Shown here one piece after another: positions 1-14,427 of a DNA stretch of 15,609 nucleotides. The DNA is from a virus (taxonomy: Duplodnaviria; Heunggongvirae; Uroviricota; Caudoviricetes). Both the position numbers and the translations under genes were made by a program. The stretch is taken from positions 89,711 through 105,319 of IMG/VR virus record IMGVR_UViG_3300043410_000715, one strand, 5' to 3'. Every line of letters starts with the position of its first letter. Position 1 is the first letter of the stretch. A model generated the notes under the pieces. The model worked only from the letters and a program-made list of their open reading frames with translations, was not told where the DNA came from and ran no database searches.

Positions 1-648
1 ATTTCCTAAGTTACCATATGGTTTGTTGTGTGGGAACAACCATCCTGCAACAACACCAGTGTTGTTATTGATAACAATCTTATAGTATCCGTGAGGAACA
101 ATTACACCTTGTCCAATAGTTGGATTACCAGCGCCATATATAGCTCCAACGTATACTGTATAGCTTTGGTTCGTTTGTACTGCCCAGCCACGTACTGAAG
201 TTTCCAGTAATTTCCAGATTCCACGGTTTAGACTTCCATGCTGTGGATACATGTTTGTCATCAAAAAACTTTCGTACTCTACCATTTGATTATATGATAA
301 GTCACCATCAGGCGCCGCGTGTCCTTTATCATATCCTGTTCCAGTATAATCGTCAGGTCTTGCACCCTTTGACACAGACTGGTCTGCCACAAAAGCGTTT
401 GTTCTGGGAAAGCAACCTAAAGCATTTTGTGGTTGCAGTGTATACGCTACGTACACTGGAATTTTAGCTGGTGCATCATACGCAACAAGATACCCTTCAC
501 GACAAATAGGCTGTGCTGTTCTTTGTGTTTGTGCAAATCCATAAGGACTATGCACTTTACATTGTTCTACTGAAAGCGGGGCACGTTGATCCCACGCAAA
601 TACGTTTGTTGATAAAAGTAGTGCGATTGTTGTTATAATTCTTTTCAT
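1..648 (-). CDS. DNA/RNA non-specific endonuclease (NucA/EndoG-like His-Me finger family) with N-terminal signal peptide; 3' end runs off the window
   Basis: Not in the ORF track. Translated by hand from the ATG at 648, which overlaps the TGA of the upstream gene (ATGA): MKRIITTIALLLSTNVFA-WDQRAP...YDKGHAAPDGD...FLMTNMYPQHGSLNRGIWKLLE...VYVGAIY...VPHGYYKIV. DKGH (319-330) matches the DRGH catalytic motif and is followed by the NxxPQ...NxxxW..LE pattern. The frame is open to position 1. Confidence 0.93.
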   Translation of the reverse strand, partial: MKRIITTIALLLSTNVFAWDQRAPLSVEQCKVHSPYGFAQTQRTAQPICREGYLVAYDAPAKIPVYVAYTLQPQNALGCFPRTNAFVADQSVSKGARPDDYTGTGYDKGHAAPDGDLSYNQMVEYESFLMTNMYPQHGSLNRGIWKLLETSVRGWAVQTNQSYTVYVGAIYGAGNPTIGQGVIVPHGYYKIVINNNTGVVAGWLFPHNKPYGNLGN

Positions 649-2429
649 ATAATTCTCATGTAATCTTTAAAGTTTGCGTGTCTATCTTCTAATCCACGCA
701 TTGCGGGATTAATTGCTTTTGTAACTGCTGTGGTATCAGCAAAATTCGTAACAATTGGCTTTACTCTAGTTTTCCAATACCATACTGCAATCTTTGCGGC
801 AATGTCAGGCTTTGCGGCTAGTTCAGGATGATTCAACAAATCTATACCCAATGCTTGACCTGCCATCCTATAGTTATCACGACCTGTTAACTGAATAAAA
901 CCTCTACCATAATACTTTTGACCATCACCGGGTGCTTTATTACCTAGTATCTTAGCTGTCTTAGGTGCATATTTTACTCCGTAACGTTTCTCAAAGTAAT
1001 CTTTGCCCATTGGTTTTTCTTTTAATCTTTCAAAGTTCCACGATTCATGTTTCATTTGACCCAAGAACTGTGCTAGTTCAGGGCCTTTTAGTCCAGAACC
1101 TAATGCTGTTTTATGTACTGCGATTTCATTGTTAGCGTTATTACCTAACAAGTTATATTCTTTCGGTGGCTTAAGACCTGTCGCAGCCTGCGCACCTGCA
1201 GCCGCGGTTGCACCTAATGCACCTAATGCACCCAAGAAGCCTCTACGTGTCATATCTTCGTCAATGTCTTTTTCAACTAAATGTCTATAAGGTGCATCAC
1301 CGTTCCATTTAAACGAATCACCACCTGCACCACTAACCCCTGATTCTTGTGTTACTGGCTGTGTTTTTTTACGCAATACGAATACGTTAGTACCTGTTGC
1401 ACCTAATTGTGCTTGACCCTGTGGGCTTAGTTTACTAGTGTCGAACTGTTGATATCCAAATTGTCCAGCTAATCTGTTAATCATCTTTTGATATAAACCA
1501 CCGCGACCTTCACCCTTGCCACTGAATACAATTATCTTTGGTTGATATCCTTTTAAGTATCTTCTGATAGCAGTAACTACTGTGGCAAAGATAGCCATCT
1601 CATCACCCTTGCCAGTAAGGTCAAAGTTGTCCATCTTACTGAATTCAATATCAGTTACATTGTCACGCACAGGAACAAAGTTAATATCAATGTACTGACC
1701 TTGTCTATCATATGCACGTGCGTGAATTTCTTTAGGACCGAACTGGTCGTCCCATTCTAGTTTGTAACCAGAGTCAGGTTCAAACAATTCATTGATTTTA
1801 TTCTCTGGTTTGTCGTATGCCCTACGGTCAGTAAGAGAAAATATCATACCATCGACAGGATCTTTTTTACTGTATAAGTCCCAACCGGGTAATAATCTTT
1901 TAATCATCTTAGCATATAAACCAATGCGACTATCTTCTTTGGCATTGAATGTAATTTCTTCTACTCTGTCAAGTCCATATTCTTTTAAGAAAGCACGAGT
2001 AATATCAACTGCTGTTGACATTACTTCTGCTGAGTTACCTGTATCAGTTTTTCCAAACAAGTCTAACTCATCAGGGTCTACATCAGGTTTTCTTATCAAA
2101 CGAAATTGTATTTCCCACTTTGTAGGATTACTACCGGTAAATGCTTGCCAAAGATATTCTCTATCGCCTACTTTAAAAAACGCAGAAACTTCGTCACGAC
2201 CAAGGCGTGCCCATTCCCAGTTAGTCTTACCGGGTTTGAATAATTCATTTACTAATTCTGTATCTGTAACTTGTTGAAGTAATTCCCATGCACTATCTTG
2301 GTCACCTTGAGCAAGTAACCTTTTCATAAGTTCTTTTTCTTCGGGAGTGGCAATCTTGAAGAACTTCATCATCTCCATCATGCCTAAGTTACCTTTGTAA
2401 CTTGCTTCAATGAATTCAGTAGCTCTCAT
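645..2429 (-). CDS. Modular protein (putative virion polyprotein): two copies of an uncharacterised ~145-aa domain, then an internal Tat-like signal and a C-terminal glycoside hydrolase family 19 muramidase/chitinase-like domain
   Basis: GH19 motifs AQFLGQMKHES, YYGRGFIQLTGRDNY, LLNHPEL...AVWYW and TKAIN..GLEDR. Two similar blocks each start at xNE|LF. The start overlaps the dps stop (TAATG). Confidence 0.88.
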   Translation of the reverse strand: MRATEFIEASYKGNLGMMEMMKFFKIATPEEKELMKRLLAQGDQDSAWELLQQVTDTELVNELFKPGKTNWEWARLGRDEVSAFFKVGDREYLWQAFTGSNPTKWEIQFRLIRKPDVDPDELDLFGKTDTGNSAEVMSTAVDITRAFLKEYGLDRVEEITFNAKEDSRIGLYAKMIKRLLPGWDLYSKKDPVDGMIFSLTDRRAYDKPENKINELFEPDSGYKLEWDDQFGPKEIHARAYDRQGQYIDINFVPVRDNVTDIEFSKMDNFDLTGKGDEMAIFATVVTAIRRYLKGYQPKIIVFSGKGEGRGGLYQKMINRLAGQFGYQQFDTSKLSPQGQAQLGATGTNVFVLRKKTQPVTQESGVSGAGGDSFKWNGDAPYRHLVEKDIDEDMTRRGFLGALGALGATAAAGAQAATGLKPPKEYNLLGNNANNEIAVHKTALGSGLKGPELAQFLGQMKHESWNFERLKEKPMGKDYFEKRYGVKYAPKTAKILGNKAPGDGQKYYGRGFIQLTGRDNYRMAGQALGIDLLNHPELAAKPDIAAKIAVWYWKTRVKPIVTNFADTTAVTKAINPAMRGLEDRHANFKDYMRII

Positions 2430-2937: not shown

Positions 2938-5900
2938 TTATTTTTTAGCCTGTTTTTTTGCAATAGCAATAGCAGCCTGTTGTTTAGCATTCTTTGCTTC
3001 TGCTACTTTCTGTTCAGCAATCATCATTAATTCGTGTAATTGCTCAACACTTTCGCAATTCCAACGGCGTAATGCCTTATTGATTGGGCTATTAGGATCA
3101 CGTTTTGTTTTAGCACTTGCACGTGACTTCTTCATCCCACTCATTCTAGCGCAGAAAGATTTACGGCGTTTTGCGTCCTTAGAACCTTTCTTTAGTTTTG
3201 AAGGCTTCTTTGTAACAGCAGTTTTTAATTTAGAACCTGGATTCTCTCTGCGATATGCCTTGACGGCTTTACGGCTCATGCCATCAGTTTTGTCAGATTT
3301 ATTGACTTTTTGCCAATCTTCGTTAATTGCTAGTTCATCTATTTTCATATCAAATGATTCCTCTAAACTTTGTTCTTCCGCCACACCTTGCTCTTTGATC
3401 TTGTCTTGGATCTTTTTATAGCGTTGGAAGTTAGCATCTTTATCCGCATCAGTTTTACCAAACTTTCCAGCGTCCATCTTTTTATCTATTTCACGCTTGG
3501 CATATCCAGGAACAACCTTGCGTAGCGTCTGTGGCAAGCCTTCCGCCACACCTTGCTTCAATCCTTTGATGGCACGGTTAATCATACTGCGTTCCTCGTC
3601 AGGACCAATGCCCTCATATCCATAGTGCATTAGATAATCTTCATACGCATTGTTCAACGCGGTAATTACAGTTGCTCTATCAAATTGCTTTAACTGTGGG
3701 TACATCTGTAGTGCTATTGAATAGTAATTGCCACCTTCGCCTTCCGCCACGCCTTCTTTAGCAAGTTTACCTAACTCTTGTTTATATTTTTGTACAACTT
3801 GTTGGTATTGTTTAGTTTTAGCATCATCTCCTGCACGATTTGCGGCAATAGCCTTTTCTTCATACTTAGGAATAAGATTCTTTAGACTACGGATACGGTC
3901 TGCTCGTTGAGCATCTTTAAACATTGGGCTTGGTTCGCCTTCCGCCACACCTTTTTCTTTAGGTGGATTAACTGGAACAGTCTTATACACACGCTTGACA
4001 GGATCCCAAACAGTTTTGCGTGGGCCCTCTTTTGCTAATTTACCTACACGTTCAACCTTCTCATCCCATTCAGGGCCATACTCAGCTTCGCCTTCAGCAA
4101 GTTGCAAATCTTTCTTCAATGCGGCAACAACACGTTGTTTACTGCGACTGTCTAACTGGTCAATCAATTTTCTAGTTTGTGCATAAACTGTATTTAAATT
4201 TTTAGTCGCCGCTGGTGCCACTTGAGAACTAGGTGGTGTTGTCGGTGTACTTGTTGGTGTTGTATTTGCTGGTTCTTGTGCTGTAGGAGTTGCATTTGGT
4301 GGTGCAACTGAAGATGGATCAACGTCAATTTTTCTTTCTATTGATGAACCGCCACCTGGTTGACCGGGAGCAGGAATCTTCATATTATTAAACACTTGTG
4401 TGATAGTACTAGTTGGTACTCCTGCTTTTTGAATTAAACTAGCAACATCTAAACTATCTGTTGGGCTACCTGCTTTTTTCCATGCTTGCAATAACTTATC
4501 CGCAGTAATCTTTGTTGTTAGATTTTGTCCTTTAGTTGCTACATAGTTACCAACTTTACCTGCGGCACCCTTGACAGTATCCATTATACCTTCTTGTAGT
4601 CTTTGTCTCTCAACAATTTTACCAATCACTAGATATATTTGTGATTCAGAAAGTTTCTTAGACTCACTAAGTTTTGGTGAATTTGATGCAGCCGCCGCAT
4701 CATATTTTAAGAAGCCTGGATTATCGGGGTCTTTAATCCAACCTGGTAATAGTTTTCCATTATCATCATATGCAATACCTGCTTGGTTAGCTGGAATACT
4801 ATTCATTCTTTGTTGATAGTCAGCCATATTCTTAGCGTTAGTTGCATCGACCTGTGCGTTGTATGCATCAACATCTTTTACTTCAGCATCATACTTTGCT
4901 TGTTGCGCCGCATTGATTTTATCAACGTCAGCATCTACTTTAGCATTAGCACGGGCTAGTGGGTTAGTTTTACTATCAGCATAGTTAGTTTCGTCACCGG
5001 TTGGTGCAACCACAGTATCATTCGCCATCTTAGCAAACTGATCTGGATCAATCTTTGGTGGTACTCGTTGAGTATAATCAGGAGAAAGGTTACCTGATGG
5101 AACATCAACTGCTCCTTTTGGCACAAATTCCCCGCCCCAATCTACTGTATTACCAGCCCCTTGACCTGCTTGAATTGTTCCTCTTCTTGGAACATATTCC
5201 ATTTCACCTGAACCTTGTACAGGTAAAACTTTCTCACCGGAAACAGCGGCATGTTGTTGGGCACCTCTAATAGCATCACCGATCTTACTTGCACCGTAAG
5301 CCATTGCGCCTGTCTTAGTACCTTGATATGCCGCACTAGAAAACTTTTCACCTTGCAATAGTTTGTCTACCATTTTAAATAGACCCAATGCCGCGGCACC
5401 ACCAACGCCAGCACCACTAATACCGGCTGCGGCGATCAATGCTGAGTAAATCAAACTTTGTGCTACTGGATGTTTCTTAGCAAAGTCACGATACTTCTGC
5501 ACATACTGCATCACACCCTGATCGCCACCAGTTGCTTGTTTTAATTGTTCAGCAGCCTTATCATACATTGCATCAACGTTTTGAATAGGACCTGAATTCT
5601 GTACTTTAGTTTTTAAATCTTCCCATGCTTTGCTAACTGCACCTGCGGCATCTTTGCCCTTACCTAGCATAGTGCGATTGTCACCGCCTGCTGTTTGAAC
5701 ATTTTGAACGTATTGAAAAATTTGATTAATTTGGTCTGCTGTTAATTGTGCTTCTACTAATTTGTAGCCTGCACTCTCCCACAATCTAAAAGTTTTCGCT
5801 TCTGTCAACATATTTACGGGACGAGCAATAGATTCAGTAAATGAAATTGGTTCTGCAATTGGTGGCTCATCTTTCCATGGCTTCCACATTCCATACTTGT

Positions 5901-6279
5901 GATTATCAATCATGTGAACTTGCACCACGCCATCTTTGATGGGAGTAATTTTACCTACTTGTTTTTTTGCGCCCCAATTATGGTCGATATAACTTTTAAG
6001 TTCCCACTCAGCTTGTTGTGTAGTGGGCGCCTTAACTGTTACTGTCATATTATAACCAGCATCTCTATCTTCATCTTTGCTGATGTTATATTCAGGGCGT
6101 GAACCTTGTGCTGGTTGACGTTGAATAGGCTCATCATCATATTTTTCTAAATCACTATCATCATAGTCATCAACGCTAGGTTTACGAGGTTTATGTTTTA
6201 GTGCATTGTAATAATCAATATCGCTATCAAAATTGCGAGGATCAACCTCATTCACGATGCCTTTTAAAATATTACTCAT
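2938..6279 (-). CDS. 1113-aa modular protein, putative internal head/ejection polyprotein with a Gly/Ala-rich hydrophobic segment, a Pro/Thr linker, GVAE-delimited modules and a very basic C-terminal module
   Basis: Long ORF with many [VIL]-x-E boundaries (VNE, LTE, LVE, LSE twice, LQE, LAE, VAE four times, LEE, INE) and a C-terminal RRKSFCARM...ALRRWNC module. No catalytic motif was recognised. Confidence 0.8.
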   Translation of the reverse strand: MSNILKGIVNEVDPRNFDSDIDYYNALKHKPRKPSVDDYDDSDLEKYDDEPIQRQPAQGSRPEYNISKDEDRDAGYNMTVTVKAPTTQQAEWELKSYIDHNWGAKKQVGKITPIKDGVVQVHMIDNHKYGMWKPWKDEPPIAEPISFTESIARPVNMLTEAKTFRLWESAGYKLVEAQLTADQINQIFQYVQNVQTAGGDNRTMLGKGKDAAGAVSKAWEDLKTKVQNSGPIQNVDAMYDKAAEQLKQATGGDQGVMQYVQKYRDFAKKHPVAQSLIYSALIAAAGISGAGVGGAAALGLFKMVDKLLQGEKFSSAAYQGTKTGAMAYGASKIGDAIRGAQQHAAVSGEKVLPVQGSGEMEYVPRRGTIQAGQGAGNTVDWGGEFVPKGAVDVPSGNLSPDYTQRVPPKIDPDQFAKMANDTVVAPTGDETNYADSKTNPLARANAKVDADVDKINAAQQAKYDAEVKDVDAYNAQVDATNAKNMADYQQRMNSIPANQAGIAYDDNGKLLPGWIKDPDNPGFLKYDAAAASNSPKLSESKKLSESQIYLVIGKIVERQRLQEGIMDTVKGAAGKVGNYVATKGQNLTTKITADKLLQAWKKAGSPTDSLDVASLIQKAGVPTSTITQVFNNMKIPAPGQPGGGSSIERKIDVDPSSVAPPNATPTAQEPANTTPTSTPTTPPSSQVAPAATKNLNTVYAQTRKLIDQLDSRSKQRVVAALKKDLQLAEGEAEYGPEWDEKVERVGKLAKEGPRKTVWDPVKRVYKTVPVNPPKEKGVAEGEPSPMFKDAQRADRIRSLKNLIPKYEEKAIAANRAGDDAKTKQYQQVVQKYKQELGKLAKEGVAEGEGGNYYSIALQMYPQLKQFDRATVITALNNAYEDYLMHYGYEGIGPDEERSMINRAIKGLKQGVAEGLPQTLRKVVPGYAKREIDKKMDAGKFGKTDADKDANFQRYKKIQDKIKEQGVAEEQSLEESFDMKIDELAINEDWQKVNKSDKTDGMSRKAVKAYRRENPGSKLKTAVTKKPSKLKKGSKDAKRRKSFCARMSGMKKSRASAKTKRDPNSPINKALRRWNCESVEQLHELMMIAEQKVAEAKNAKQQAAIAIAKKQAKK
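3375..3953 (-). repeat. Four dispersed direct repeats encoding the (K/E/Q)GVAE linker
   Basis: AGCAAGGTGTGGCGGAAG is exact at 3375-3392 and 3540-3557. AAGG(T/C)GTGGCGGAAGGCGAA occurs at 3736-3755 and 3934-3953 (19/20 identical). All four share AAGGYGTGGCGGAAG. Confidence 0.95.
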
Positions 6280-6280
6280 T

Positions 6281-6901
6281 TTAGTGTTTCTTCTTGTTTT
6301 TGTTGTCTAAGTAGCCACGCTTGTTAGCAGTTGCCCATGCAATGTTCTCTGCTTCTTTAGAACTCTTGCCTAATTTCTTTTCTGACTTTTCAATGTGCTT
6401 AACCATACGGTCTACTTTAGCACCTTCGGCAGCGATGCCACCGGCAATAACGCCAGCAGGGCCACATTCATCAACTACATATTCATAATCTTTCATGCTT
6501 AGTGTCTTTCCACGAGCACCTCTTGATACTAGTTTCTCTGCTAAGTCGTGTAGGTCTAAATCGCTACCTGCTTCTTCACGTGCGAATTCAAGTAATCTGA
6601 TTAATAATGGAATATCAACTTTAATAACGTCTGTAGGATTCACTGAATTTTCTGGCTTTGAAAGTAAACCAGGCTTCAATTTGTTTCCTTTACCAGGAGT
6701 AATAATCTTGTCGTCTTCGTCTAGTTTCGCTTCTGAAACTCGTCCATCGCTAGTTTCTTTTCCCTCATTGACGCTGTTGGCATAGGGACCGTTTTTTGTT
6801 AGTTTTTTTGTAGGAATGCGCTTTTGCACTTCTCCTAGGGGCATAGATACAGTTGATATTGATCCTGCAGTGGTTGATTCTGATATTTCTGTGAAACGCA
6901 T
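6281..6901 (-). CDS. ~206-aa modular protein, putative internal head protein (start revised from TTG 6913 to ATG 6901)
   Basis: Begins MRFTEISE|S with a GGA 7 nt upstream. Short modules are separated by VNE, VSE, LDE, VDE and AAE. Includes the blocks DIPLLIRLLEFAREEA..DLH and KVDRMVKHI...IAWATANKRG. Confidence 0.8.
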   Translation of the reverse strand: MRFTEISESTTAGSISTVSMPLGEVQKRIPTKKLTKNGPYANSVNEGKETSDGRVSEAKLDEDDKIITPGKGNKLKPGLLSKPENSVNPTDVIKVDIPLLIRLLEFAREEAGSDLDLHDLAEKLVSRGARGKTLSMKDYEYVVDECGPAGVIAGGIAAEGAKVDRMVKHIEKSEKKLGKSSKEAENIAWATANKRGYLDNKNKKKH

Positions 6902-6904
6902 AAT

Positions 6905-6956
6905 GAAATCCAATGTGATATAGTATTTATCAAAAATCTATATACATTCGGAATTC
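6905..6956 (-). promoter_or_regulatory. Late promoter motif (ATAAATA, 6924-6930) in the loop of an imperfect hairpin whose 3' arm contains the putative RBS of the 206-aa gene
   Basis: Plus strand: gaaatcc-aatgt-g-atatag [14-nt loop] ctatat-acatt-c-ggaattc, an inverted repeat with 1 mismatch and 2 bulges. Confidence 0.65.
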
Positions 6957-6960
6957 TATT

Positions 6961-9528
6961 TTAGTATTTTCCGTTGGGATTTGCGTTTGGTGGTATGCCC
7001 GCTCTACTTGTTTTCCAGTAGAAGGCTTTTGCGTTCTTTTTGATACTGTCAGGGTGAACGTCTACTGTTAGTGCAGTCTTAAAGCGAGGATCGTTACGTT
7101 CTGCATAGCTAGGAATGTAGCCGCTTGCTTCTTCTAATTGAATGTTGACTTTTTTGATTCTACTAGGATCAATTATAGTGTCAACTATCAATTCATAGTC
7201 AGCACCTTTACTGATGTTCTTTTCTAAACCAGAAACGTCAATCTTTAGCATAGTCAACGGTTCATCGTCAAACTCGTCACCTAGCCAATTCATAACTGCA
7301 TCTTCTGCGCTTGTCCTGTCTGGAAATACATAGATTCCAGACTTCTCACCTGCTATCTGACTTGTTCTATCACCTACAGTAGGTTTAAGACCTTGCTTTG
7401 CTATTGACTTTAAATTTCTTGTAGGAGTTACATGATAGACAAACTGAGGTGTGGATTCTGCTTCTGCTACGCCCTGTTTCAACCTAGTCAATTCGTATAC
7501 TACTTGGTCGCCGTGATCCTCACTATATTCATCATATCCCCATGCTCTAGCGTATCGTCTAATTAAACTGTTGTATAGTTTTGCTCTGCTCTCACTATTT
7601 TTTGCATCGTTGGGATCCTTAGAGGCAGAAAATATTAGACGCCAAGGATGTTCTTTTTGAATGAATTGATGGATCGCACTGATTACGGTAGCAAATACTC
7701 TTTGTGCATCACCTTCGCCGGTGACCCCCATGCTGAAGTTCCTATCAAATCTCACATGCCATTCATCATCGCCTTCAGGTTCAATCATAATGCTTAACAG
7801 TGTACCATCGTCTAATGTAGCTAGTGCATCGTAATCGCCGAAATCACTTTTTTCCCAAGTAAAGGGATAGGGTTTATCAAATGCTTCAGACAATGTTTCT
7901 TTTGAGAGTTTTTCTACTTTATCTACAGCTTTTTTCAATGCGTCATCATAACCATTCTGTTTAGCTTCTTGTCTGGTCATTCCCAAGAACTGACTTAGCA
8001 TTTCTTTAGCAACTTGATTTGATAATTTTTGTCTAGTATCGCTATTAACCCTTAAATGACTTATGCTCCAATATAGAGCATCAGATAATCGTTTCATACT
8101 TAACTTGTCACCTTGTACATAGTTGTTGAATGTCTTATGTTGCTTGATAGCTCTTGGGTCTAAGATACATCCCTGATATGGTTCGCCAAACGCAATCCAA
8201 CTTTTACCTTCATCAAGCAATACAGTAAATCCCAAATTTCGTAGTATCTTATTCCATACAATGATTTTACGTTCGTCATTCTTGAATCGTCTACTTAATG
8301 CGTCATATGTAAACCATAATGCATCATTGATACCTTTCCTAGCACTCATGCTAGGCTCATCAATAGCATATTGTATATCACTATCTGTTATACCATACTC
8401 AGCTAATACTCTTTTCATGTCCTCGAAAGGGACTTTAGTATTAGGAGTCATCATGTGGCTAGTATCAAATTGTAACAACTGCATGTATGGTAAGTGGTCA
8501 CCCCAAGGCAAACGCTTTTTGTTGTCCAACATGCGTAAGAAATAATCTAATGGATAGAAATAAATGCCTTTAGGTGTGTCTTCGCTGACACTCGGTTGAG
8601 GATTGATACCTAACTTAGGAAGTAATGTCATGCTTACTCCCCAGTTACTTTTATCTCTGATACCTTCTGCGTAAGAAGCCAGTTCATATTTACCTGAACC
8701 ATACCTGTAATTCTGTTCAGGATTCGCTCTTGCTTCGTCTACTTCTTGTTGATTAAATTCTCTAGCAAACTTTTCTGCCAAGTTATCTTCTTGAACCTTA
8801 ATAGGGTCTTGGTACATTGTTTCAATAGTCAAATGTTCACTATGCAACTTGTCTCTCAGTGCATATAGTTTATCTATGTATCCTTGACTACGTAATGCTT
8901 TATATGCTAAGTTTTCAGGACCAAACTCCCCACCTTTGTCTAGTCCTGCTTTTCTATATTGTTTTATCTTTTTGATTATGTTTTCTATCTTCTTCAATTT
9001 ACTTGAGGTGAGCGCAAATTGAACTAATTCTAATAATTTATCGTATTTTGCTCTGGTAGCAGTTTGGTCAAAATTTGCTCTGCGCTTAGTTGGGATTCTA
9101 AGCCATTTGTTATCCTTGATACTGTACTCACCTAGACTTACGACTGGTTCTCTGGCGTCTTGTACGTATATTTCTACTGGTACCCCGTGTATTAAAATGT
9201 TATGTGTGTCGTTATAGATAATCTTTTTTGCATGGAATAATTCTCTATAGATATCATCATTTTCTAATCTGCTCATATCTATTAGAATGTGTAAATCTAA
9301 ATCTGAATGTGGTGTATAACTATATGCGGCGTTTGAACCCGAGACTGTTAAATCTTGTACTTCCAAATCGTGAACGCCTAATTCTGATAGAAAATCTTGT
9401 GCAACAAGTTCTAATTGTTTTTTTACTTCCGGACGCAAATGATTATTTCTCCATAACTTTGGATTCAATTCGTTATGGAAAGTGATTGCGTCAGATATCT
9501 TAAAACTGTCTAATTCTCGTAAATTCAT
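6961..9528 (-). CDS. ~855-aa multi-enzyme protein: Pol-beta-superfamily nucleotidyltransferase, ART-like module, GNAT-like repeat module, H-x-T ADP-ribosyltransferase/KptA-like module and a short terminal module (start revised from TTG 9543 to ATG 9528)
   Basis: SGSNAAYSYTPHSDLDLHILID (9295-9339) plus VEIYVQD; TPKGIYFYP...EPYQGCILDPRAIK; TGEGDAQRVFATV...RAKLY; YHVTPTRNLKSIAKQGLKP...GIYVF...YE..V..IIDP..I. Modules are bounded by VDE|A, LSE|A, VAE|A and LEE|A. Confidence 0.8.
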   Translation of the reverse strand: MNLRELDSFKISDAITFHNELNPKLWRNNHLRPEVKKQLELVAQDFLSELGVHDLEVQDLTVSGSNAAYSYTPHSDLDLHILIDMSRLENDDIYRELFHAKKIIYNDTHNILIHGVPVEIYVQDAREPVVSLGEYSIKDNKWLRIPTKRRANFDQTATRAKYDKLLELVQFALTSSKLKKIENIIKKIKQYRKAGLDKGGEFGPENLAYKALRSQGYIDKLYALRDKLHSEHLTIETMYQDPIKVQEDNLAEKFAREFNQQEVDEARANPEQNYRYGSGKYELASYAEGIRDKSNWGVSMTLLPKLGINPQPSVSEDTPKGIYFYPLDYFLRMLDNKKRLPWGDHLPYMQLLQFDTSHMMTPNTKVPFEDMKRVLAEYGITDSDIQYAIDEPSMSARKGINDALWFTYDALSRRFKNDERKIIVWNKILRNLGFTVLLDEGKSWIAFGEPYQGCILDPRAIKQHKTFNNYVQGDKLSMKRLSDALYWSISHLRVNSDTRQKLSNQVAKEMLSQFLGMTRQEAKQNGYDDALKKAVDKVEKLSKETLSEAFDKPYPFTWEKSDFGDYDALATLDDGTLLSIMIEPEGDDEWHVRFDRNFSMGVTGEGDAQRVFATVISAIHQFIQKEHPWRLIFSASKDPNDAKNSESRAKLYNSLIRRYARAWGYDEYSEDHGDQVVYELTRLKQGVAEAESTPQFVYHVTPTRNLKSIAKQGLKPTVGDRTSQIAGEKSGIYVFPDRTSAEDAVMNWLGDEFDDEPLTMLKIDVSGLEKNISKGADYELIVDTIIDPSRIKKVNIQLEEASGYIPSYAERNDPRFKTALTVDVHPDSIKKNAKAFYWKTSRAGIPPNANPNGKY

Positions 9529-9533
9529 ATATG

Positions 9534-9540
9534 TATTTAT
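9534..9540 (-). promoter_or_regulatory. T4-like late promoter motif ATAAATA, 5 nt upstream of ATG 9528
   Basis: Minus strand reads G-ATAAATA-CATAT-ATG, immediately after a terminator and with no Shine-Dalgarno. Confidence 0.7.
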
Positions 9541-9541
9541 C

Positions 9542-9567
9542 AAAACTAAAGCCCCTTTCGGGGCTTT
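9542..9567 (-). terminator. Rho-independent terminator after the glycosyltransferase gene
   Basis: Minus strand: AAAGCCCC-GAAA-GGGGCTTT-AGTTTT, a perfect 8-bp stem with a GNRA tetraloop and a U-rich tail, 3 nt after the stop. Confidence 0.85.
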
Positions 9568-14396: not shown

Positions 14397-14422
14397 AAAT
14401 ACTCCATTAATAGAGTATTTAT
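14397..14422 (-). promoter_or_regulatory. Late promoter motif ATAAATA (14416-14422) overlapping the 5' arm of a hairpin that pairs with the GGAG RBS
   Basis: Minus strand: GAT-AAATACTCTA-TTAA-TGGAGTATTT-TTC-ATG, a 10-bp stem with one G-U pair and a 4-nt loop. Confidence 0.78.
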
Positions 14423-14427
14423 CATAG

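Follow-up and report, generated by a model that had tools for sequence, protein, structure and literature searches.

The closest known counterparts of the protein described here are the internal proteins of bacteriophage T4. IPI, IPII, IPIII and Alt carry a capsid-targeting sequence, are cleaved by gp21 and are ejected with the DNA (PMC9026906, PMC3012670). Targeting depends on residues 4 and 7 of this sequence and gp21 processing on residues 8 and 10 (PMC9026906), and the sequence is the sole element common to the otherwise diverse T-even internal proteins (PMC3012670). Here we describe P0001, a 594-residue open reading frame in a 15,609-nucleotide stretch of DNA (hereafter the window; positions 89,711 to 105,319 of the virus record IMGVR_UViG_3300043410_000715). 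A leader similar to that of the T4 proteins stands at the head of P0001, and the chain ends in a predicted twin-arginine translocation (Tat) signal followed by a GH19 muramidase, so that P0001 may be head cargo built for export.

P0001 resembles the T4 internal proteins in that a short similar leader, with an E-F-I-x-E core, heads many unrelated proteins. It also has predicted hydrophobic-x-Glu cut sites, and a gp21-type protease and a gp23-type capsid protein are found in a related contig. The cargo itself differs. In T4 it consists of one module that works in the cytoplasm, and no export signal has been reported for it, whereas in the P0001 family, whose packaging we infer, several modules form a string and the last of them joins a Tat or general secretory (Sec) signal to an enzyme that acts in the periplasm. 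As for the signal, P0001 shares with bacterial Tat signals (TIGR01409 and PF10518; TorA and SufI) the S/T-R-R-x-F-L motif, a Gly/Ala core of about 16 residues and A-x-A. Canonical Tat signals are N-terminal in the primary product, whereas the P0001 signal starts at residue 392 of 594 and lies as far in as residue 570 in relatives.

Thylakoid-lumen proteins have bipartite transit peptides, whose first part is taken off by a stromal peptidase so that a Tat or Sec lumen signal is exposed. The logic would be the same here: an export signal is silent behind a first targeting element and is exposed by a protease, with Tat and Sec versions in one family. However, the thylakoid system is eukaryotic and unrelated, and in P0001 the first target would be the capsid, with the two targeting steps in two cells. 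Among phage enzymes, exported endolysins include the signal-arrest-release (SAR) endolysins P1 Lyz and R of phage 21, and the Sec-exported Lys44 of Oenococcus phage fOg44. As proposed for P0001, these muralytic enzymes cross the membrane by host export with no need for a holin hole, and they have a Gly/Ala-rich hydrophobic segment. SAR endolysin systems are discussed in PMC9239132. The exported endolysins, by contrast, have an N-terminal signal and do their work in the producing cell. None is known to be of the Tat type or to follow a capsid-targeting leader, and the core in the P0001 family is mostly too short for a SAR span. Finally, the virion muralytic ejection proteins (T7 gp16 and the GH19 proteins of phages Motura, FLC9 and Va2) are particle-borne hydrolases with Gly-rich hydrophobic segments nearby, as in our model of P0001. 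They are large structural or tape-measure-like proteins of tail or core modules and have neither the Tat consensus nor a capsid-targeting leader nor the Glu-site junction. Each kind of part is thus already known, and what would be new is the combination of T4-type capsid-targeted cargo with a Tat or Sec signal. Our literature search, in which subscription journals were thinly covered, turned up no paper describing either a Tat-dependent endolysin or phage cargo whose signals are unmasked by a protease.

The layout of P0001 is given below, with an arrow marking each predicted cut. Structures are from an AlphaFold2 (AF2) model with its predicted local distance difference test (pLDDT) scores.

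645..2429, minus strand: the whole P0001 open reading frame, 594 aa plus stop, translated without an internal stop (leader, modules, putatively masked signal, GH19)
2406..2429, minus strand: leader MRATEFIE, residues 1-8, ending in the F-I-E site; resembles the T4 capsid-targeting sequence
2244..2405, minus strand: residues 9-62, an inserted helical module flanked by FIE↓A and VNE↓L (AF2 helices 15-63)
1788..2243, minus strand: first alpha/beta module, residues 63-214, DUF6934-related, ending in INE↓L (phrog_16075 on residues 56-189; pLDDT about 75-93)
1362..1787, minus strand: second alpha/beta module, DUF6934, residues 215-356 (PF22028 on residues 264-324, 46 bits; AF2 model)
1257..1361, minus strand: linker disordered by pLDDT, residues 357-391, with the sites LVE↓K (1272-1280) and IDE↓D (1257-1265)
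1185..1256, minus strand: Tat-type signal, residues 392-415 (TIGR01409; conserved RR)
1155..1184, minus strand: short Pro/Lys linker, residues 416-425 (longer P/Q/K-rich linkers in homologues)
648..1154, minus strand: GH19 muramidase domain, residues 426-594, with Glu462 (1044-1046) and Glu471 (1017-1019) in H-E-S...L-K-E

Residues 384-415 (nucleotides 1280-1185) read LVE-K-D-IDE-D-M-T-R-R-G-F-L-G-ALGALGATAAAG-AQA, with Met393 at 1253-1251 and Ala415 ending at 1185. The original prediction for this locus had placed a Tat-like signal from Met393 to AQA at nucleotides 1253-1185, directly behind LVE↓K and IDE↓D, and translation reproduced both its position and its sequence exactly. The segment has an n-region of D-M-T-R-R (RR at 1242-1247), a 16-residue Gly/Ala h-region, GFLGALGALGATAAAG (1194-1241), and a c-region of AQA (1185-1193). 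The NCBIfam profile TIGR01409 (TAT_signal_seq) matched residues 394-415 at 21.7 bits (curated cutoff, 16.7), in agreement with the twin-arginine consensus, weakly hydrophobic core and A-x-A end that had been claimed for it. P0001 therefore has the motif (T-R-R-G-F-L-G, 394-400) and the moderately hydrophobic h-region followed by A-x-A that are expected of a Tat signal, and its signal would become N-terminal only after the IDE↓D cut. No other open reading frame of at least 60 aa in the 105-kb contig combined RR-x-[hydrophobic]2 with an apolar stretch. On sequence grounds, we conclude that residues 392-415 are a real and conserved Tat-type signal.

A GH19 muramidase follows the signal, as had been predicted. 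Pfam PF00182 (GH19) matched residues 436-558 at 59 bits, and PHROGs endolysin families matched the C-terminal part. The catalytic pair H-E-S...E (Glu462 and Glu471) aligned with HES...QE of the SPN1S endolysin 4OK7 in phmmer, which aligned it with 7R6S as well. Judged from this alignment, the domain is intact and the catalytic Glu pair is kept. Foldseek with the whole AF2 model returned GH19 matches only (7R6S, 4OK7 and 9MS7) and none for the N-terminal modules. In the model, a helical region (15-63), two alpha/beta regions (71-206 and 224-354) and the GH19 domain (430-594, pLDDT about 95) flank an unstructured stretch (357-422, pLDDT <50). This stretch contains the signal and is not packed against GH19.

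To gauge conservation, we used homologues gathered by sequence similarity to P0001. Related protein clusters from uncultured T4-related jumbo phages numbered in the hundreds when 5.8 billion proteins were searched. Across 154 cluster representatives of the RR form, the block [V/I/L]-x-E-D-[L/M/I]-[S/T]-R-R-G-F-L-G was nearly invariant, a recurrence well beyond what chance would give. At the protease-type site, P3 was V, I or L in 147/154, P1 was Glu in 144/154 and P1' was Asp in 144/154; this [V/I/L]-x-E site is of the T4 prohead-protease type. S or T preceded the pair in 149 of the 154. The pair itself was RR in 148/148 motif contexts and never KR, RK or KK, although the codons vary synonymously (CGT, CGC, CGA or CGG for the first Arg; AGA, CGA, AGG or CGC for the second). 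An invariant RR with synonymous codon variation indicates selection on the protein rather than a copied piece of DNA. A passive Gly/Ala spacer was rejected on the same grounds, because RR is invariant despite synonymous codon turnover.

The position of the RR ranged from residue 11 to residue 570; it was internal in 117/154 and within 20 residues of the N-terminus in 37/154. Since the upstream Glu site is kept whether RR stands at residue 11 or at 570, the protease-type site appears to be coupled to the signal. TIGR01409 matched 20 of 33 sampled fragments beginning after the Glu (best E-value, 1.5e-8); 21 of the sampled fragments were RR class and 12 were KK or WKD fragments without RR, the matches being counted over the sample as a whole. 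Some minimal relatives carry a precomputed PF10518 match. Across the RR class and two further signal classes (described next), apolar cores had a median of 15-16 residues (family median, 15.5); only 12/154 RR-class cores reached 18, and A-x-A came next in 120/154. Such core lengths, together with A-x-A, are more in keeping with cleavable signal peptides than with transmembrane anchors or SAR domains.

About one-quarter of the GH19 homologues have another segment in the same position. The KK type reads V-D-E↓G-V-V-D-W-A-K-K, Gly/Ala core, A-D-A↓K, and the WKD type reads L-E-E↓G-W-K-D-W, Gly/Ala core, A-D-A↓K. Both types resemble Sec signals. Each of the three signal classes is preceded by hydrophobic-x-Glu, which is [LIV]-x-E↓G in the KK and WKD variants, and in all three most cores are followed by A-x-A, a P/Q/K-rich linker and GH19. 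With three types in one position, the segment appears to behave as an interchangeable export signal. Conservation of RR, which the original prediction had singled out as a check, thus holds within the motif, but not across the quarter of homologues with KK or WKD.

The signal was also seen in front of other domains. In L082 (IMGVR_UViG_3300047481_000530), residues ~49-80 of a 379-aa open frame contain a V-D-E↓D-L-S-R-R-G-F-L-G signal with an AQA end before a non-GH19 domain, so that the putatively masked Tat signal does not belong to GH19 alone. P0060 (558 aa, ENA) has a leader, one module, M-S-E↓D-I-S-R-R-G-F-L-G-G-L-A-G-M-A and then a pyridine-nucleotide-disulphide oxidoreductase; the join may be genuine, or it may be a chimera made in assembly. 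An unrelated 407-aa IMG/VR protein that matched E-D-x-[ST]-R-R-G-F-L-G has no apolar core after the motif and was set aside as a chance match.

We then compared the leaders. P0001 begins MRATEFIE-A, and most relatives begin MRATEFI-T-E, compared with MKTYQEFIAE-A of T4 IPII and IPIII (NC_000866). The P0001 leader therefore has the form of the T4 type, which is about 10 residues like MKTYQEFIAE with a hydrophobic-x-Glu end. Nearly all listed homologues start MRA-x-E-F-I-x-E whatever follows (DUF6934, GNAT, GH19 or other modules), and a simple leader regular expression matched 140/154 RR-class sequences. In the shortest relatives (209-226 aa), the leader is followed immediately by D-[LMI]-[ST]-R-R-G-F-L-G and then GH19. 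A cut after the leader Glu in these minimal relatives, or after IDE in P0001, would give an identical mature N-terminus. The helical insert is missing from P0002, in which the leader runs directly into LFQPGK, and it stands directly before the signal in P0003, P0006 and P0139. The absence of this 54-residue insert from P0002 and its presence elsewhere in the chain of other relatives point to module shuffling at the Glu sites. A block paralogous to the second alpha/beta module was found in the 860-aa neighbor of P0001. The N-terminal 392 residues of P0001 matched no cultured relative in tblastn against 50,697 phage records. Beyond the window, a 230-aa open reading frame on the same contig (G000:C1:64843-65535, plus strand) begins MRASEFIKE, the same type of leader.

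Related contig G001 (230 kb) encodes a GH19 protein with the same leader. It also encodes a Peptidase_S77 protein of the gp21 family (100 bits). Adjacent genes encode a scaffold-like protein and a capsid protein of the Gp23 family (328 bits), the latter 29% identical to T4 gp23. On our best reading, the phage of P0001 is a T4-related jumbo phage. A second GH19 protein without leader or signal is present in G001 (L047, 1378-1998, minus strand; 206 aa) and in G004 (L046, 1369-1995, minus strand; 208 aa). It adjoins Gly-rich fibre-like genes and shares 31% identity with GH19 of P0001. This leader-less protein is a plausible candidate for the ordinary endolysin of the lineage. Five partial related genomes gave no match to PF00959 (T4-type lysozyme), a negative that is uninformative with contigs 25-61% complete.

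Our favored reading, which we hold to have an even chance of being correct, is that P0001 is capsid-packaged cargo in which the prohead protease unmasks an export signal that acts after ejection. The leader MRATEFI-x-E (8-9 residues) would direct the P0001 precursor into the prohead, like the capsid-targeting sequence of T4 internal proteins. A gp21-type prohead protease would cut after hydrophobic-x-Glu at FIE↓A, VNE↓L, INE↓L, LVE↓K and IDE↓D. Cutting at the last of these would free a fragment of ~22 kDa starting D-M-T-R-R-G-F-L-G, that is, the GH19 muramidase with an N-terminal Tat signal and an AQA signal-peptidase site. Because it would be formed inside the capsid, the fragment could not act in the producing cell; on ejection it would enter the next host together with the DNA. 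In that cell, the exposed signal would take it via the host Tat system, in an RR-dependent manner, to the periplasm and peptidoglycan, and the KK and WKD relatives would go via Sec. Packaging, cleavage, ejection and re-export are thus steps that we infer. The points in favor are the Tat profile match, the codon turnover at RR, the coupled Glu site, the interchangeable signals and the T4-like leader. To these we add the protease and capsid genes of G001, the second GH19, the plain Sec signals of neighboring genes, the disorder of the signal region and a late-like motif upstream (the neighbors and the motif are described below). The claim of the original prediction that cleavage would unmask the signal is likewise supported, at the level of sequence, by the conserved Tat block directly behind a Glu site and by an internal start that is not conserved.

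Several points weigh against this reading. Since the homologues were gathered by similarity to P0001, the counts given above are no unbiased census. P1' at the signal site is Asp, compared with small residues at the GVAE↓G linkers of the window, and T4 prohead-protease sites prefer small P1' residues. In the 37/154 relatives whose signal lies within 20 residues of the N-terminus, only a 9-residue leader precedes it, and the RR of E. coli TorA is at residues 11-12. So short a leader would probably hardly mask a Tat signal, which implies that masking is not essential everywhere and that export in the producing cell is possible for those phages. Peptidase_S77 and the scaffold-like and Gp23 genes that adjoin it in G001 were not found in the window's own contig, an absence that is to be expected for a fragment holding ~30% of the genome but still counts against the reading. 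A periplasmic muramidase early in infection would bring no obvious benefit. Last, ejected head proteins may leave the tail in the periplasm, as opposed to the cytoplasm in the case of T4 cargo (PMC9026906).

This last point leads to the main rival, an entry muramidase, which is live but in our view unlikely. The packaged and cleaved fragment would leave the tail tip in the periplasm as infection starts and digest peptidoglycan locally, and its hydrophobic N-terminus would dip into the inner membrane from outside, as has been proposed for T7 gp16 or muralytic tape-measure proteins, with TatC unused. The cultured phages with the nearest GH19 domains (Achromobacter phage Motura, Burkholderia phage FLC9 with gp42, and Vibrio phage Va2) do have them in large proteins of virion or tape-measure-like type, downstream of Gly-rich hydrophobic segments. 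Both the leader and the Glu sites are equally compatible with packaging of this kind, and RR can be dispensed with, as the KK and WKD variants show. However, a generic membrane-dipping helix does not explain a S/T-R-R-x-F-L motif that is invariant in 148/148 contexts despite synonymous codons, and a median core of 15-16 residues is short for a transmembrane span. The A-x-A in 120/154 suggests signal-peptidase processing, which needs translocation from the cytoplasmic side. In addition, the gene belongs to a cargo array of non-structural type, close to the DNA polymerase gene and outside the tail genes. The original prediction had instead proposed that the head protease frees the signal-bearing muramidase in the cytoplasm of the producing cell, for protease-timed, holin-independent lysis through Tat. 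The signal directly behind a conserved protease-type site, A-x-A sites that would yield a soluble periplasmic enzyme and the lack of a PF00959 GH24 lysozyme in the five partial genomes are in keeping with this model. We nevertheless judge it improbable, and this part of the prediction is not supported. T4-type cleavage acts inside the prohead core, and its products stay encapsidated or exit as small peptides (PMC9026906, PMC3012670). Encapsidation is also what the T4-like leader suggests, the separate leader-less GH19 of relatives could be the endolysin, and the minimal forms require no unmasking.

Two further models leave the chain uncleaved or divide it by translation. As a bitopic, SAR-like endolysin, P0001 would have an internal signal-anchor: its N-terminal modules would remain cytoplasmic, and GH19 would stay tethered on the periplasmic side up to the moment of membrane depolarization. 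The composition fits: the core is Gly/Ala rich, basic residues N-terminal of it obey the positive-inside rule, and the uncharged stretch in P0001 is 22 residues. Internal Tat-dependent transmembrane insertion has a precedent in actinobacterial Rieske proteins. SAR endolysins are defined by an N-terminal, membrane-spanning, weakly hydrophobic domain, however, whereas the P0001 segment is internal and family cores are mostly 14-16 residues, too short for a stable span. Nor would the model give a role to the invariant Glu site just upstream or explain the shared leader, and a SAR domain is not releasable into the periplasm while dragging 392 cytoplasmic residues, so we regard it as quite improbable. 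An internal start at Met393 would make a nested gene for an independent 202-aa Tat-exported GH19. An ATG is present at 1253, T4 genes 17 and 21 are annotated with in-frame internal starts, and gene starts in the window often lack a strong Shine-Dalgarno (SD) sequence, so a weak one is no bar. The original prediction was right that no clear SD sequence precedes Met393 (anti-SD duplex, -0.9 kcal/mol). This counts little for or against, because true starts in the window are equally weak (+0.6 to -5.8 kcal/mol). The homologues are more telling. Among the 154, the position of Met393 is taken by Leu (86), Met (43), Ile (24) or Val (1), the codons in IMG/VR loci are TTA (15), ATG (11), ATA (4), CTA (2) and ATT (2), and the KK and WKD variants have no Met there. 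A conserved internal start, which the original prediction had named as a finding that would undo it, was therefore rejected, and initiation at Met393 is very improbable.

Returning to packaged cargo with a protease-exposed signal, the complete two-cell, two-step route is a more tentative proposal. Here the head protease would uncage a signal caged by the capsid-targeting part, and the Tat or Sec system of the next host would re-export a virion-delivered muramidase. We consider it possible but short of an even chance. If true, it would be a targeting route not described for any virus, and phage head cargo would not be confined to cytoplasmic targets, which would widen the roles of internal and ejection proteins. 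Enzymes would reach the host envelope from inside, seconds after infection, by the host export machinery. Such a signal would be a natural protease-caged signal peptide in bacteria or their viruses, and it would offer a design for phage-delivered periplasmic cargo. The arrangement itself is widespread among uncultured T4-related jumbo phages, given the hundreds of protein clusters.

The window is the final 15.6 kb of a 105-kb IMG/VR virus contig estimated to be ~30% complete, from which we estimate a jumbo phage genome of roughly 350 kb. Megablast of the window against the 50,697 phage records gave no match. The P0001 start overlaps the stop of a Dps-like gene, and its stop overlaps the ATG of the nuclease gene directly downstream, which is translationally coupled to it. 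Two features bear on this gene string.

1..648, minus strand: non-specific endonuclease with an ordinary N-terminal Sec signal, 3' end beyond the window (PF01223, 120 bits; N-terminus MKRIITTIALLLSTNVFA-WDQ)
6923..6932, minus strand: TGATAAATAC, a T4-late-promoter-like motif upstream of the gene string 210-aa protein, 1113-aa protein, Dps, P0001 and nuclease

The pairing of a GH19 gene and then a nuclease gene recurs in related contigs. The nuclease position is filled in relatives by EndoNS, SNase or an S11 peptidase (DD-carboxypeptidase), each leader-less and with a plain Sec signal. It is thus a conserved pairing of genes for envelope-directed enzymes. Because the neighboring nucleases and S11 peptidase use plain N-terminal Sec signals, the buried signal of P0001 is a distinct design; ordinary Sec signals therefore serve export from the producing cell. 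Between the Dps-like and nuclease genes of related contigs lie 2-4 consecutive genes that bear the leader and are otherwise unrelated. The Dps/ferritin-like gene (PF00210; 2429-2869, minus strand) has its counterpart directly upstream of the leader-tagged gene run in every related contig examined. P0001-type genes sit in this non-structural cargo array near the DNA polymerase gene, away from tail genes.

The strict T4 late promoter, TATAAATA, was not found in the window, whereas the variant TGATAAATAC was present at 6923-6932, 9533-9542 and 14415-14424 (all minus strand). All three copies are intergenic and just upstream of genes, and the five copies in the whole contig are always on the coding strand. 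The three matches to ATAAATA in the window are all intergenic and on the coding strand. TGATAAATAC resembles TATAAATA and may serve as the late promoter of the phage lineage. A near-consensus sigma-70-type promoter (TTGACA, 16-nt spacer, TAGAAT; 11/12 matches) is found at 7157-7184 on the minus strand, within the 3' end of the 860-aa gene and ~230 nt upstream of the late-like motif. The cargo gene string may thus have both early and late promoters, and the T4 ip genes have both.

Other observations concern the proteins encoded upstream of the Dps-like gene. The listed TTG starts of 6281-6913 and 6961-9543 (minus strand) are probably wrong, as judged from L008 orthologues. The N-termini of these orthologues (MNLRELDSF and MKINQIIVE-TSTTAGS) suggest ATG starts at 9528 (MNLRELDSFK) and 6901 (MRFTEISE-S), and the suggested N-terminus MRFTEISE-S is leader-like. 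In the 1113-aa protein (2938-6279, minus strand), four K/E-x-G-V-A-E-G/E linkers part small modules at residues ~777-970, and one further such linker occurs in the 860-aa protein; these linkers have the appearance of protease sites. A second conserved N-terminus, MS-x-ILKG-[IL]-x-x-E, is common to the 1113-aa protein and its orthologues.

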